Assembly (NCBI GenBank): GCA_964651695.1
Contig: CAZYYP010000003.1
Span: forward strand, 1 to 49,584
Length of the DNA: 49,584 nt
Reading direction: 5' to 3'
DNA from: an uncultured Gaiellales bacterium
Lineage (GTDB): Bacteria > Actinomycetota > Thermoleophilia > Gaiellales > JALYLC01
A model generated the notes under the pieces. That model did no database searches, had not been told where the DNA came from, and worked only from the letters and a program-made list of their open reading frames with translations. A program made the translations under genes and the position numbers. Of the stretch, positions 15,528-19,518 are shown piece by piece (within the stretch, counting starts at the first letter, position 1; each line of letters starts with the position of its first letter).

Positions 15528-16520
15528 CTACGCTCCGGCGGCGGGCGGGATCAACATTCCCCGCACGGCCGCCACGATCTCGTCCGCGCCGGGCAGATAG
15601 GCGTCCTCGAGCGGCGGGCTGAGCGGGATCGGGGCAAACGGCGCCCCGACGCGCGCGATCGGGGCGTCGAGCGAGTCGAACGCCGCGCTCCCGACCTGCG
15701 CGGCGATCTCGGCGCCGAAGCCGCCGTGCTCGACGGCCTCGTGCGCGACGACCAGCCGCCCGGTGCGGCCGACCGAATCCACGATCGCCGCGAGGTCGAG
15801 TGGGACGAGCGTGCGCGGGTCGATCACCTCGGCCTCGATGCCATCCTCGGAGGCGAGGCGATCAGCCGCCGCAACCGCCTCGTGCGCCATGCGCGAGAGC
15901 GCGACGATGGTGACGTCGTGGCCCTCGCGCAACGTGACCGCGCGCCCGATCGGCACCGGCACGACCGGCTCGGGCACCTCGCCCGTGCGGAAGTAGAGCG
16001 TCTTGTTCTCGATGAAGACGACGGGGTTGGGATCGGCGATCGCGCTCGCGAGCAGGCCCGCCGCATCGCACGGGCGGCTCGGCATCACGACCTTCAGCCC
16101 CGGCACGTGCGTCAGCCAGCTCTCGAGACTCTGCGAGTGCTGCGCACCGCCGCGGTACCCCGCGCCGCCCTGGGTGCGCAGCACCATCGGCACCGTCAGC
16201 TGCCCGCCCGACATGAAGTGCGCCTTGGCGGCGGCGTTGACGAGCTGGTCGAGCGCGAGCGTGATGAAGTCGATGAACATGATCTCGAGCACGGGACGCA
16301 TGCCCGACTGCGCGGCGCCGATCGCGACGCCGGTGATGGCCGCCTCGCTGATCGGGGTGTCGATCACCCGCTCACGGCCGAACTCCTCGGAGAGGCCCGC
16401 GGTGGCGGTGTAGGGCCCGCCCTCCGCGACGTCCTCCCCGAGCACGAAGACGCGCTCGTCCGCGCGCATCGCGGTCGCGAGCGCCGCGGTGATCGCCTTG
16501 ACGTAGGTCGTCTCAGCCAT
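15528..16520 (-). CDS. 2-oxoacid/acetoin dehydrogenase E1 component, beta subunit (second copy)
   Basis: MAETTYVKAITAALATAMRADERVFVLGEDV...VIDTPISEAAITGVAIGAA is a transketolase-like Pyr domain, followed by a C-terminal domain. The start overlaps the upstream alpha stop by 8 nt. Confidence 0.9.
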   Translation of the reverse strand: MAETTYVKAITAALATAMRADERVFVLGEDVAEGGPYTATAGLSEEFGRERVIDTPISEAAITGVAIGAAQSGMRPVLEIMFIDFITLALDQLVNAAAKAHFMSGGQLTVPMVLRTQGGAGYRGGAQHSQSLESWLTHVPGLKVVMPSRPCDAAGLLASAIADPNPVVFIENKTLYFRTGEVPEPVVPVPIGRAVTLREGHDVTIVALSRMAHEAVAAADRLASEDGIEAEVIDPRTLVPLDLAAIVDSVGRTGRLVVAHEAVEHGGFGAEIAAQVGSAAFDSLDAPIARVGAPFAPIPLSPPLEDAYLPGADEIVAAVRGMLIPPAAGA

Positions 16521-17487
16521 CGGCGTAGACCAGCTCGCCGATCAGGCCGGCCGGCGGGAACGGGCTCGCACGCGCCACGGCCTCGGCAGCCTCGAGCGCG
16601 GCGGTGGCGTCCGACTCGATCGCCGCCAGGGCGTCCGCGCCGAACCAGCCCTGCGCGATCCCGTGGCGCTGGAGCCGCCAGATCGGGTCCCTGGCGTGCC
16701 ACTCCGCGTCCGCGAGCGTCTCGCGGTACGCGCCGGGATCGCCCTCGTAGTGACCGCGCAGCCGGTGGGTCAGGCACTCGAGCAGAAACGGCCCGCCGCC
16801 GGCCCGCGCGGCGTCGAGAAAGCGCCCGAATGCGTCCCAGACCGCGGCAACGTCGCTGCCGTCCACGGTCTCGCGCTCGAGTCCGTAGGGCGCCACCACA
16901 TCGCTCACGCGCTCCACGATCGTGTGCGCCGAGCGAGGCGTGAACTCGGCGAAGCCGTTGTTCTCGCACACGAGGATCAGCGGCAGCCCCCACAGCGCCG
17001 CCAGGTTCACGGTCTCGTTGAAGTGGCCGGCCTGCACGGCGCCGTCGCCGAAGAAGACGACGGCAACCGAGTCCTCGCCCCGCAAGCGCATCGCCAGCGC
17101 GCTCCCGAGCGCGATCGGGATGGTGCCGCCCACCACGCCGGTCGCGCCGAGGAAGCCGTGCGCGGCGTCGACCAGGTGCATCGACCCGCCGAGGCCGCGG
17201 CAGAGCCCGCCGTCGCGGCCCATCAGCTCCGCGAGCACGCGCGCGAGCGGCGCGCCCTTCGCGATGGCGTGCCCGTGCGCGCGATGCCCGGAGTAGACGA
17301 CGTCGTCGGCGCGCAGTTGCGCGCACACGCCGGCCGCGACCCCTTCCCCGCCGATGCTGAGGTGGATCAGCCCGTGCACCTCGTCGGCCTGCTTGAGCCG
17401 GCCCACCCGCTCCTCGAAGAGGCGGATGCGCCACATGGTCGCGAGCAGGCGCAGCGCGTCCTCGCCGCCGAGCGGCGCAGGCGCCAC
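16513..17487 (-). CDS. 2-oxoacid/acetoin dehydrogenase E1 component, alpha subunit (second copy)
   Basis: TPP-binding motif [35 protein letters not shown], and N-terminal [11 protein letters not shown]. The GTG start at 17487 directly abuts the upstream beta stop at 17488-17490. Confidence 0.85.
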   Translation of the reverse strand: [324 protein letters not shown]

Positions 17488-18468
17488 CTAGGAGCTCACG
17501 AGTGCCGTTCCGAGCACCCGGTGGACCGCCGCGACGACCTTCTCCTCGCTGGGCATCACGAATGCCTCGAGGGGCTGGCTGTAGGGGACGGTCGCGTCCA
17601 GCGCGGTGACCATGACGATCGGCGCCTTGAGCGACGAGAAGCCGTGTTCGGCGACTTCGGCCGCGATCACGCCGGCCGCGGACGCATGGCGCGTGGCCTG
17701 GTCGACGAGCACGAGGTGACCGGTCTTCTCGACCGACTCCAGGATCGTCTTGGTGTCGAGCGGCGCGAGCGTGCGCGGGTCGATCACCTCGGCCTGGATG
17801 CCGTCGGAGGCGAGTTGCCCGGCCGCGGCGAGCGCGCGGTCGACGCACCAGCCCGTGGCGACGATGGTCACGTCCCCGCCCGTGCGCCGGATCGCGGCCT
17901 GGCCGAACGGCACGAGGTACTCGCCGTCCGGCACCTCGCCGTGCTCGAGCGTGAGCAGGTAGTTGTGCAGGTAGACGACGGGGTTGTCGTCCCGGATCGC
18001 CGTCGCCATCAGGCCCTTGGCGTCGGCTGCCGTCGACGGCACGACGACCTTGAGGCCCGGGACGCCCATGAAGAGCGCGCTGATCGTGCCCGTGTGCTGA
18101 CCCGCCCAGCCGGCCGTGAAGCCGTAGCCGGCCTTGAGCACGATCGGGACCTTGACCTGGCCGCCGCTCATCGCGCGGAAGCGCGGGGCCTCGTTGAGTA
18201 CCTGATCCATGGCGACGAGCATGAACTCGGCCATGTAGAGCTCGACGACGGGCCGGAAGCCCGAGAGCGCGGCGCCGATCGCGATGCCGATCTCGGCGGT
18301 CTCGGAGATCGGCGTGACGCGCACGCGATCCCTGCCGAAGGCGTCGACGAACGGCTCGTTCTCCGTCGTGGCCATGTTCTGGCCGAAGTAGAGGACGCTC
18401 TCGTCGCGCTCCATCTCGAGGTGGATCGCCTCGCCGATCGCGGCGATGTACGGCAGTTCATGTGCCAT
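17488..18468 (-). CDS. 2-oxoacid/acetoin dehydrogenase E1 component, beta subunit (first copy)
   Basis: MAHELPYIAAIGEAIHLEMERDESVLYFGQNM...RVTPISETAEIGIAIGAALSG, over 326 aa. The architecture matches an E1 beta / transketolase C-terminal domain. Confidence 0.9.
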   Translation of the reverse strand: MAHELPYIAAIGEAIHLEMERDESVLYFGQNMATTENEPFVDAFGRDRVRVTPISETAEIGIAIGAALSGFRPVVELYMAEFMLVAMDQVLNEAPRFRAMSGGQVKVPIVLKAGYGFTAGWAGQHTGTISALFMGVPGLKVVVPSTAADAKGLMATAIRDDNPVVYLHNYLLTLEHGEVPDGEYLVPFGQAAIRRTGGDVTIVATGWCVDRALAAAGQLASDGIQAEVIDPRTLAPLDTKTILESVEKTGHLVLVDQATRHASAAGVIAAEVAEHGFSSLKAPIVMVTALDATVPYSQPLEAFVMPSEEKVVAAVHRVLGTALVSS

Positions 18469-18477
18469 GAATCGCTC

Positions 18478-19518
18478 CTAGGCCTCGGTGTAGGCGAGCG
18501 CTTCGCTCGTCTCGGGGAAGGGGCTCTCGAGTCCGAACGTGACAGCCGCCTGCATCTCGTCGCGCACCGTCGCCGCCATCGCGTCGGCCTGCTCGGCCGT
18601 GAGCGTCCCGTCGGCGACGAGCCGCCCGCGGAACGCCGGCAGCGGGTCGCCTCGCTTGGCCGCCTCGTACTCCTCGGGCGCGCCGAACTTCTCGATCGCC
18701 TCGTGCTCGGGGAAGTGGAGCGGAACGCCGGGCGGGGCGATGATGTTGCCGTGCGCCGAGAGGCGGTACATCTGCGACTCCACGAGCGTCGGTCCGTCGC
18801 CCGCGCGCGCACGCGCGACGGCGGCCCCGACCGTCTCGTAGACGGCCACCGGATCGCGGCCGTCGATCGTCACGCCGGGCATGCTGTAGGCCTTCGCCTT
18901 GACCGAGAGATCCTCGCCGTTGGCGCGGTTCGCGTCCTCCTGGTCGGAGCGCGTGTGGACGTTGTAGCCGTTGTTCTCCATCACGAAGACGATCGGCAGC
19001 TTCCACAGCGAGGCGATGTTGAGCGTCTCGGCGAACGCGCCCTGCTTCGAGGCGCCGTCGCCGAAGAAGCAGAGCACGACCTGCCCCTGCTTGCGGATCT
19101 GCGCGGCCCAGGCGGCGCCGGCGGCATGCGGGATGCCCGCCGCGACGATCCCGGAGGTGCCGAGGAAGCCGTTGGAGACGTCGGTCAGGTGCATCGAGCC
19201 GCCGATGCCCTTGCAGAGCCCGTCCCTGCGGCCGTAGATCTCGGCCATCATCGCCTTCGGATCCGTGCCGCGCGCGATGGGATAGCCGTGGCAGCGGTAG
19301 GTGGTGAGGAACTGGTCGTCGGGGCCGAGCGTCGCGATCGACCCGACGATCGAGGCCTCGGCGCCGTCGGCGAGGTGCGTGTGCCCGCGGATCACGCCCG
19401 GATGCTCGAGGAACGTGCGCTTGACGCGCTCCTCGAACTCGCGGATCCGCAGCATCTGCTCGTAGATCCAGACCAGCCGGTCGCGGTCGAGCGCGGGGAC
19501 CCCCTGCAGCGTGCTCAC
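18478..19518 (-). CDS. 2-oxoacid/acetoin dehydrogenase E1 component, alpha subunit (first copy)
   Basis: GTG at 19518 overlaps the upstream stop as GTGA and is in frame with ORF 18478..20472. N-terminus [32 protein letters not shown]. TPP motif [35 protein letters not shown]. Confidence 0.9.
   Translation of the reverse strand: [346 protein letters not shown]

Follow-up and report, generated by a model that had tools for sequence, protein, structure and literature searches.

Textbooks present the E1 components of 2-oxoacid and acetoin dehydrogenases as members of E1-E2-E3 complexes, and a locus at which two E1 alpha/beta gene pairs stand in a row with no E2 or E3 gene beside them raises the question of what such pairs could do. 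We analyzed this arrangement in a stretch of 49,584 nucleotides (49.6 kb; the window), which is contig C3 of a 3.7-Mb metagenome-assembled genome (MAG) of an uncultured Gaiellales bacterium, 73% complete and of ~72% G+C. The four E1 genes, alpha1 and beta1 (pair 1) and alpha2 and beta2 (pair 2), belong to an operon in which they follow the gene for a xylose-isomerase-like TIM barrel (TIM below; Table 1). Judged by their conserved residues, they encode two complete, catalytically intact alpha2beta2-type thiamine diphosphate (ThDP) E1 enzymes, and by identity and phylogeny the pairs are old, separate lineages that are able to occur without each other. As to their function, we give about an even chance to the reading that they are two independent enzymes cleaving C-C bonds of alpha-ketols, diketones or 2-oxoacids, with the lipoyl group probably supplied in trans.

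An earlier, sequence-only reading of the window had placed an alpha-beta-alpha-beta array at positions 15528-19518, and both the order and the coordinates proved correct: all four genes lie on the minus strand, with domains assigned by Pfam. Catalytic residues were located by alignment to PDB chains, using the numbering of the G. stearothermophilus E1, and the E2-docking position was located via human E1-beta. Conservation was assessed in the best 80 of the 452 relatives obtained from a scan of species-representative genomes; these 80 loci all come from Gaiellales, Gaiellaceae, Thermoleophilia or Solirubrobacterales MAGs. The Asp of the GDG motif and the NN pair are invariant in both E1 pairs in the ortholog alignment (~80 species). 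In alpha1, whose orthologs are 75-96% identical across Gaiellales and Solirubrobacterales, GDG/NN and the equivalent of His271 (His256) are retained in 80 of 80 orthologs, and the beta1 equivalents of Glu59 (Glu56) and His128 (His125) in 79 of 79. Alpha2 has GDG/NN in 69/69 orthologs and the His271 equivalent (His246) in 68/68, and the Glu59 and His128 equivalents of beta2 are likewise invariant in its orthologs. Both GDG...NN motifs are therefore present as had been claimed, and neither pair is degenerate, since the catalytic residues are invariant in every ortholog examined; a loss of catalytic residues in one pair, which that reading had named as grounds for rejecting it, was not observed.

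The same reading described the pairs as tandemly duplicated, and this was not borne out. Alpha1 and alpha2 are 42% identical and beta1 and beta2 46%, and pair 2 is closer to an E2-linked paralog on contig C10 of the same genome (46.5% for alpha2, 53% for beta2) than it is to pair 1. Maximum-likelihood (ML) trees were built from 35 alpha and 35 beta sequences, covering all paralogs of three genomes, with three annotated references (an acoXABC operon, an E1-E2-E3 operon and a cluster of E1, lipoyl and pyrroloquinoline quinone (PQQ) enzyme genes). Each pair forms its own clade with 100% support, on stems of ~1 substitution per site (~0.4 for beta2), and the clades are not each other's sister; neither groups with an E2-linked clade or with the AcoA/AcoB reference. 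Deep nodes lack resolution in these trees, and no donor lineage is proposed. The low identities and the trees together rule out a recent tandem duplication.

The independence of the two lineages is also seen in their distribution. Among 301 genomes of the class, alpha1 and alpha2 occur together in 12, always ~2 kb apart, while alpha1 is found alone in three and alpha2 alone in four, so that pair 1 is without pair 2 in 3/15 sampled genomes and pair 2 without pair 1 in 4/16. The alpha1-only loci have the gene order TIM-alpha1-beta1. The alpha2-only genomes (family f7) have the order pair 3-TIM-alpha2-beta2, where pair 3 is a third, unrelated E1 type that is 34-36% and 41-44% identical to pair 1; in the f7 loci L218-L220 (genomes G590, G555 and G502) a GMC gene follows alpha2-beta2, and the pair-3 beta subunit has Lys at the position of human Asp289. 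Because the pairs are found apart, the constant element is TIM, the E1 pairs behave as modules and it is unlikely that a mixed tetramer is obligatory. A single heteromeric alpha1-beta1-alpha2-beta2 enzyme with two different active sites had been offered as one option, and it would suit the contiguity and translational coupling of the four genes, the adjacency of the pairs wherever both are present, and the recurrent combination of a pair whose docking residue is basic with one in which it is acidic, a combination also seen in family f7 with the third E1 type as the basic member. The three pair-1-only and four pair-2-only genomes, together with several further pair-1-only loci and a sister clade (below) that has one pair only, weaken this option to the point that we consider it very unlikely. 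The other option, that the pairs act on different or successive intermediates, stays the best reading of two pairs, which probably take different isomers or different related substrates.

The claimed absence of lipoyl, E2 and E3 open reading frames (ORFs) from the 49.6 kb was confirmed in three ways. A Pfam scan of the ~47 window ORFs gave no lipoyl, 2-oxoacid_dh or E3 domain; in six-frame searches of the entire assembly the families PF00198, PF00364 and PF02852 were matched on other contigs and not in the window; and tblastn with the E2, lipoyl and E3 sequences of the genome itself and a foreign lipoyl carrier had no match in the window. The same queries found nothing within 8 kb in the 80 related loci, and six further Thermoleophilia loci are likewise without lipoyl, E2 or E3 genes within 8 kb, for a total of >85 loci. 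As the genes are missing from 80 species-level genomes and further loci, their absence does not stem from faulty assembly; it is a trait that evolved and is conserved at the locus.

The term orphan, which had been applied to the pairs, thus holds for the locus, where there is no E2 or E3, and does not hold for the genome, which even at 73% completeness has four E2 genes (contigs C218, C10, C47 and C27) and five E3-like genes in family searches of the whole assembly. The E2 genes of C218, C10 and C47 each adjoin an E1 pair of their own, as does a lipoyl-bearing E2 fragment at the edge of C229; the E2 gene on C27 has no alpha/beta E1 alongside. E1 genes with no adjacent E2 are also found elsewhere in this genome, namely a fused alpha-beta E1 of 693 amino acids (aa; C63:7463-9544, minus strand) and a pair in beta-alpha order that adjoins an acyl-CoA-dehydrogenase-like gene (C113:6072-8055, minus strand). 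In a complete 3.3-Mb related genome there are two E2 genes vs at least seven alpha/beta E1 pairs.

With E2 and E3 genes elsewhere in the genome, the pairs might be ordinary E1s of an acetoin, pyruvate or branched-chain complex whose E2/E3 operon lies at another place, the gene organization being merely split. The automatic names of the homologs (pyruvate or acetoin dehydrogenase E1) agree with this, as do the 46-53% identity of pair 2 to the E2-linked E1 of C10 and the match of beta2 to a pyruvate dehydrogenase (PDH) E1-beta subfamily model (NCBIfam PRK09212, 361 bits vs a cut-off of 321). However, the E2 genes that adjoin E1 pairs in this genome and in the related genomes G001 and G002 already have a pair of their own, and both alpha subunits fail the PDH_E1_alph_y model, with 294 (alpha1) and 291 bits (alpha2) vs an equivalog cut-off of 393.85 (TIGR03182/TIGR03181), a shortfall of ~100 bits. 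Moreover, the long-stem clades of the pairs stand apart from the E2-linked paralogs of the three genomes and from the acoXABC AcoA/AcoB; their conserved partners are TIM, an O-demethylase and alcohol oxidoreductases; and the alpha1 family is rare, being present in 2/401 genomes across the phylum and 15/301 in the class. (In a representative library of 1.8 billion proteins, alpha1 scores fall sharply beyond a handful of clusters.) We therefore regard this explanation as unlikely, and neither the hidden Markov model (HMM) scores nor the trees gave the tight clustering with bona fide acetoin or branched-chain 2-oxoacid dehydrogenase (BCKDH) E1 that the sequence-only reading had said would count against that reading itself. 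An AcoC-type E2 (lipoyl plus alpha/beta-hydrolase; NF011457) was not found above the cut-off in the window, the genome or three relatives, using a model that recognizes the AcoC of the reference acoXABC operon with 526 bits vs a cut-off of 307. In some Solirubrobacterales-type loci (L094:6288-7028 and G147:C12:218468-218758) an alpha/beta-hydrolase without a lipoyl domain is encoded directly upstream of TIM, which recalls the catalytic half of an AcoC-type E2.

What pair 1 may work with is suggested by its nearest relatives outside the Thermoleophilia, which are found in soil and peat metagenomes, on contigs with a G+C content of 55-61% (loci L130-L209). Identity to the window proteins is 55-62% for alpha1, 63-70% for beta1 and 47-54% for TIM. 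The operons of this sister clade have the order [Amido2]-[URO-D/Meth_synt_2-like]-DUF5938-AMP ligase-lipoyl carrier-E1-alpha-E1-beta-TIM (e.g., L131:3643-10861), with thiolase, PQQ alcohol dehydrogenase, aldehyde dehydrogenase (ALDH), hydantoinase-B-like and intradiol dioxygenase genes nearby. In 71 of the 73 sister loci E1-alpha is immediately preceded by an ORF of ~100 aa that has the lipoyl-lysine motif VELETEK[VI]; there is a single E1 pair and no second. A lipoyl-domain gene upstream of E1-alpha is absent from the window and from all the Thermoleophilia loci, even at E<=1. The sister operons and the window module have DUF5938, Amido2, CoA ligase, thiolase, ALDH and alcohol dehydrogenase genes in common, and differ in that the former have a translationally coupled carrier and one E1 pair, whereas the window has no carrier and two pairs, and in that TIM is downstream of the E1 genes in the sister operons but upstream in the window.

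Two features of pair 1 bear on the lipoyl question. First, alpha1 has an insertion of 13 residues directly after His256, in the outer loop, which is nearly invariant among its orthologs (consensus of alpha1 and the sister clade, AHGN-I-PP-P--FPEHEA); alpha2 is without it. In the G. stearothermophilus E1 the outer loop after H271-alpha engages the lipoyl domain (PMC2663715). Second, Asp319 of E1-beta (Asp289 of the mature protein) forms the key E1-E2 salt bridge (PMC5554223), and at this position beta1 has Lys281, with K in 73 and R in five of its orthologs (78/78 basic), while beta2 has Asp285, with D in 59, E in four and Q in two (63/65 acidic). The residue is Asp in the E2-adjacent paralogs, and Lys or Arg in the AcoB of acoXABC, in the beta subunit of a free-lipoyl-type cluster of Sphingobium and in the pair-3 beta. 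The active-site neighborhood of beta1 is divergent as well (GQNM for GEDV, QHTGT for QHSQS). The sister clade keeps the alpha insertion and the catalytic residues, and its beta docking position is non-acidic in 56/58, so that pair 1 and TIM share with the sister module the 13-residue insertion, the non-acidic docking residue and an adjacent, orthologous TIM.

Since the sister clade has these features together with a carrier, they are no proof of lipoate independence. On this evidence pair 1 derives from, or is the sister of, an E1 served by a free lipoyl carrier, and its lineage is compatible with such a carrier and probably evolved for one; the Thermoleophilia form has lost the local carrier and usually has pair 2 in that neighborhood. 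With its acidic docking residue and canonical loops, pair 2 could still dock on a conventional E2.

The alternative is that both pairs are E2-independent lyases or decarboxylases that use no lipoate: the enamine would be protonated, a second aldehyde released and the products oxidized by the neighboring ALDHs, that is, benzaldehyde-lyase- or pyruvate-decarboxylase-like chemistry on an E1 scaffold. We consider this possible, though less probable than the main reading of two independent C-C-cleaving enzymes as a whole. The lack of lipoyl, E2 and E3 genes near the operon in >85 genomes, the absence of an AcoC-type E2 from four genomes and the frequency of ALDH and alcohol dehydrogenase (ADH) genes among the neighbors all accord with it, as does the reversed charge of the docking residue in beta1, for in Carassius an E1 that forms acetaldehyde without E2 has the D319N change at this site (PMC5554223). 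On the other hand, a clade with the same beta signature and alpha insertion has a lipoyl carrier, beta2 keeps the docking Asp, and the equivalents of His271 and His128 never vary, even though the G. stearothermophilus E1 can carry out the first half-reaction without these residues. In that enzyme the main role of H128-beta and H271-alpha is in reductive acylation of lipoate, and the H128Q form retains 100% of the activity with 2,6-dichlorophenolindophenol (DCPIP) while its PDH activity is down to 3.8% (PMC2663715). The non-lipoyl acceptor put forward in the sequence-only reading is thus not favored, given the carrier in 71/73 sister loci and the strict retention of both histidines of the lipoyl half-reaction. 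Between lipoyl in trans and simple aldehyde release we lean only slightly to the former.

Free lipoyl ORFs occur in this genome and its relatives. A free-standing lipoyl-domain ORF of ~100 aa with the motif LVETDKV lies beside a VOC/glyoxalase-like gene on another contig of the genome (C178:5452-5667, minus strand), and it is possible that it serves as a carrier in trans. A dedicated trans carrier was considered and set aside: the free lipoyl ORFs of four genomes share no neighbors and are not evidently orthologous, and that of the related genome G002 resembles the biotin carrier of a carboxylase. In two related genomes we found a further clade of apparently orphan E1 pairs (L114, G001:C1:3894322-3895483; L120, G002:C1:1652635-1653830) with a small lipoyl ORF directly upstream of E1-alpha; free-lipoyl/E1 units are therefore also present within the Thermoleophilia. 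In a cultured sphingomonad, plasmid pBSY17_1 of Sphingobium sp. RAC03 (876562-880829; L112) has genes for E1-alpha, E1-beta, an 80-aa 'biotin/lipoyl-containing protein' and a PQQ-dependent dehydrogenase in a row, with two short-chain dehydrogenases/reductases, a cupin and an ABM monooxygenase upstream. This is a lipoyl/E1 cluster lacking an E2 core, as in the sister operons, but it is only ~42% identical to the window genes and is without TIM. Orthologs in cultured organisms were also sought in plasmid records, where every match was below 45% identity and no ortholog was found; these matches were used as references only.

TIM accompanies the E1 genes in every form of the module and adjoins them in three arrangements, those of the Thermoleophilia, the sister clade (47-54% identity) and family f7. 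Its best NCBIfam match is the N-terminal domain of the QuiC dehydroshikimate dehydratase, at 51 bits far below the cut-off, and a protein atlas labels it only as 'sugar phosphate isomerase/epimerase family'. The folds nearest to its AlphaFold model (pLDDT 81) are Lmo2234, the TIM domain of QuiC1, IolI and ketose 3-epimerases. Such relatives are metal-dependent enzymes that deprotonate next to the carbonyl in alpha-hydroxyketones.

GC3-guided gene calling and Pfam scans place TIM and the E1 genes in a seven-gene operon on the minus strand (13953-21832). The junctions of all seven genes are overlaps or spacers of <=33 nucleotides (nt). The O-demethylase stop overlaps the TIM start by 4 nt, and the TIM stop overlaps, as GTGA, the GTG start of alpha1 at 19518, which has the ribosome-binding site GAAGGAGAGGAG ahead of it; then follow a 9-nt spacer (alpha1/beta1), 0 nt (beta1/alpha2), an 8-nt overlap (alpha2/beta2) and 33 nt (beta2/GMC). 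A promoter and terminator scan of the operon found nothing and is uninformative at 72% G+C actinobacterial composition. All seven genes are matched at 90-100% identity by short contigs in four wetland metatranscriptome libraries that have no DNA control, which is weak evidence and speaks for presence in RNA libraries, not for operon structure or induction.

Table 1. Features of the window discussed in the text, in order along the DNA.
Feature	Position	Strand	Match
Nine-gene CoA-dependent operon	3598-13095	-	
GntR/UTRA regulator, divergent	13140-13910	+	
GMC flavoprotein oxidoreductase, alcohol oxidase/choline dehydrogenase type; last operon gene	13953-15494	-	PF00732 + PF05199
E1-beta2, 330 aa	15528-16520	-	PF02779 + PF02780
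E1-alpha2, 324 aa	16513-17487	-	PF00676 (E1_dh), E=8e-63
E1-beta1, 326 aa	17488-18468	-	PF02779 (Transket_pyr) + PF02780 (Transketolase_C)
E1-alpha1, 346 aa	18478-19518	-	PF00676 (E1_dh), E=3e-66
Xylose-isomerase-like TIM barrel	19515-20396	-	PF01261
LigM/DesA-type tetrahydrofolate-dependent aryl O-demethylase; operon gene 1	20393-21832	-	PDB 5x1i/5tl4, E=4e-153
Divergent operon: acetoacetate-CoA-ligase-type ligase, Amidohydro_2, saccharopine-dehydrogenase-like/DUF5938 reductase	21937-25925	+	Pfam
Ligase of the divergent operon	21937-23925	+	
Gallate/protocatechuate-4,5-type cluster	25943-31790	-	
pcaHG-pcaD-pcaC-pcaF-pobA-pcaB beta-ketoadipate cluster	31852-39297	+	

The first operon gene matches the structures of the vanillate/3-O-methylgallate O-demethylase; it passes the NCBIfam LigM equivalog (599 bits vs a cut-off of 580) and under the DesA model scores 689 bits, short of the cut-off of 800. 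For the last gene, the PDB neighbors are choline dehydrogenase, a chloramphenicol-oxidizing oxidoreductase and alcohol oxidases (E=1e-107 to 1e-102). The core TIM-alpha1-beta1-alpha2-beta2 recurs in most of the 80 loci. Its frequent neighbors are a GMC or Zn-dependent ADH gene, LigM, the divergent ligase-Amido2-DUF5938 operon, ALDH genes, IclR regulators, a benzoylformate-decarboxylase-like ThDP enzyme and gallate-type ring-cleavage genes. In roughly half of the related loci beta2 is followed by a GMC gene, and in others Zn-ADHs take its place. The GMC flavoprotein was considered as an electron acceptor for the E1 enamine and set aside; about half of the loci lack it. All three genes of the divergent operon are syntenic in most Gaiellales loci, and the operon appears to be functionally linked to pair 1, because DUF5938 (55-60% identity) and Amido2 also accompany the lipoyl/E1/TIM operon of the sister clade. 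Its ligase passes the NCBI acetoacetate-CoA ligase equivalog (751 bits vs 521) despite the aromatic island around it, and its substrate could be an aromatic beta-keto acid or acetoacetate itself.

Farther out in the window, the gallate-type cluster (GMC, VOC dioxygenase, DUF6282, PIG-L/GalB-like, RraA-type aldolase and NAD_binding_2/DUF1932 genes) lies back to back with the beta-ketoadipate cluster; in several relatives (L074, L084) gallate-type genes come directly after the E1 genes on the same strand. On the other side, the nine-gene operon encodes a family III CoA-transferase, a crotonase, an HMGL-like lyase, an acyl-CoA dehydrogenase, a small ORF, an alpha/beta-hydrolase, an ALDH, an Fe-ADH and a PrpD-family protein; in most related loci it shows no synteny with the E1 module.

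The context of the module thus comprises LigM, GMC, Zn or PQQ alcohol oxidoreductases, ALDH, a beta-ketoacid-type CoA ligase, thiolase and protocatechuate/gallate ring-cleavage genes, and functionally equivalent sets accompany both of its forms (an O-demethylase or methyltransferase-like protein, an alcohol oxidoreductase, ALDH, CoA ligase/thiolase, DUF5938/Amido2 and ring cleavage). These genes fit the removal of side chains from methoxylated aromatics with formation of vanillate-type acids for LigM, and in our view the module probably serves to remove oxygenated side chains from compounds of the lignin type. The high G+C content and the E1 pairs had prompted us to consider a secondary-metabolite cluster, which was rejected as all the neighbors are catabolic. 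The same catabolic context stands against the idea that the pairs are biosynthetic carboligases moving a two-carbon unit from pyruvate to a ketone in the manner of AviB1/AviB2 or Plm8/Plm9: these proteins are a precedent for E2-free action of E1 alpha/beta pairs (PMC4802897), but no NDP-sugar, glycosyltransferase or other biosynthetic genes are found in the window or the related loci, and we hold this to be highly improbable.

For two independent, C-C bond-cleaving E1s, we envisage the following sequence of reactions. An alcohol oxidoreductase would create a carbonyl beside a hydroxyl or carbonyl on the side chain, and TIM, whose fold family uses metal-stabilized enediolates of alpha-hydroxyketones, would isomerize, epimerize or dehydrate the resulting ketol. 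Each E1 would then add ThDP to the carbonyl of an alpha-hydroxyketone, 1,2-diketone or 2-oxoacid so that the adjacent C-C bond is broken and one fragment is released as an aldehyde or CO2. The ThDP-bound fragment would most likely be oxidized onto a lipoyl group encoded outside the operon, either on the lipoyl domain of one of the E2 proteins of the genome or on a free lipoyl protein.

A more specific version, which we offer as doubtful, is that the TIM/E1 module is an enzyme set by which aryl alpha-ketols and diketones derived from lignin lose their C2 or C3 side chain. Candidate substrates would be the Hibbert ketones GP-1 and GP-2, the G-diketone and arylglycerol-derived ketols; TIM would interconvert regio- or stereoisomeric ketols and each E1 would cleave one isomer, forming vanillin or vanilloyl-lipoyl and a two-carbon fragment and so feeding the LigM at the head of the operon. 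In N. aromaticivorans, the enzymes turning the aryl ketols GP-1, GP-2 or the diol GD into vanillin are reported to be unknown, and the GP-1 and GP-2 ketols interconvert (PMC8612281). Going by gene context, a ketol isomerase with acyloin-cleaving E1 enzymes would be a natural candidate for the conversion of GP-1 and GP-2.

Several points weigh against cleavage with lipoyl in trans and against an aromatic substrate. There is no lipoyl, E2 or E3 gene within 8 kb in >85 Thermoleophilia loci, and no dedicated trans carrier is evident, the free lipoyl ORFs of four genomes being without shared synteny. Since the carrier is coupled to E1 in the sister clade, its loss may be a true shift to a lipoyl-independent reaction, and the retained histidines would also be expected in a lyase in which they protonate the enamine. 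Nor does the Asp289 criterion hold universally: the Thermus E1b has Leu at that position. The aromatic assignment is drawn entirely from gene neighborhood, and the acetoacetate-CoA ligase, together with the HMG-CoA-lyase-like gene in the next operon, would also suit an aliphatic ketone or isoprenoid-like substrate.

We found no paper on a TIM/E1 module in the literature, and a full-text search (acetoin dehydrogenase, lignin, GMC) gave nothing relevant. The closest known system is the E1 of acetoin dehydrogenase, in which AcoA/AcoB form E1, AcoC is a lipoyl plus alpha/beta-hydrolase E2 and AcoL is E3. It has the same alpha/beta E1 Pfam architecture and carries out ThDP cleavage of a non-carboxylated alpha-hydroxyketone, as is proposed for the window E1s. 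The acoXABC AcoA is among the best cultured-organism matches to alpha1 (41-42%) and also falls below the PDH E1-alpha equivalog cut-off, and AcoB also has Lys at the Asp289 position. The window pairs nevertheless fall outside this system on E2, and clustering gives no support for their belonging to it: no AcoC-type E2 was found in the window, the genome or three relatives, nor an AcoX or a sigma-54 regulator, and pairs 1 and 2 have no supported grouping with AcoA/AcoB in trees that held one Aco reference. The window differs further in its two E1 pairs, TIM and aromatic context.

With the PDH and BCKDH E1s (G. stearothermophilus E1p, 1W85/3DUF; human E1p, 1NI4/3EXE) the window proteins share the folds, the ThDP motif, Glu59 and His128 of beta and His271 of alpha, and beta2 keeps the E2-docking Asp. 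They differ in that identity is only ~35-45% and below the equivalog cut-offs, the neighborhood encodes no cognate E2 or E3, the docking charge is reversed in beta1 and alpha1 has the outer-loop insertion. In reaction type, the window E1s as proposed would be analogous to benzaldehyde lyase and other ThDP acyloin lyases, which cleave aromatic alpha-hydroxyketones to aldehydes; those enzymes have an unrelated single-chain fold of the pyruvate oxidase/acetolactate synthase (POX/ALS) type, not E1 alpha/beta. E1 pairs working without an E2 core are represented by the Carassius E1alpha3/E1beta2 pyruvate decarboxylase, in which the docking Asp that is replaced in beta1 has also been lost (D319N; PMC5554223), and by the sugar-branching carboligases AviB1/AviB2 and Plm8/Plm9 (PMC4802897). 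Their roles are in fermentation and in antibiotic sugar biosynthesis, and the window is not in an NDP-sugar or antibiotic cluster.

Two intact E1s are therefore kept under strong purifying selection in abundant, uncultured soil actinobacteria that span at least two orders, Gaiellales and Solirubrobacterales, without E2 or E3 at hand, always beside a TIM barrel and in islands funneling methoxylated aromatics to protocatechuate or gallate. What is new is the TIM barrel as a constant partner and the sister operon of lipoyl carrier, E1-alpha, E1-beta and TIM, with the carrier in the place of pair 2; the link to this sister module suggests a family of stripped-down, uncharacterized ThDP/lipoate systems for C-C cleavage. 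In metagenomes these genes are labeled 'pyruvate dehydrogenase E1', a name that will lead reconstructions of the metabolism of soil Thermoleophilia astray. Should the substrate prove to be a ketol derived from lignin, aromatic catabolism would include an acyloin-cleaving system of the E1 type that has no E2 core dedicated to it; the module would then close a recognized gap in the bacterial catabolism of lignin monomers and provide new enzymes for funneling depolymerized lignin.

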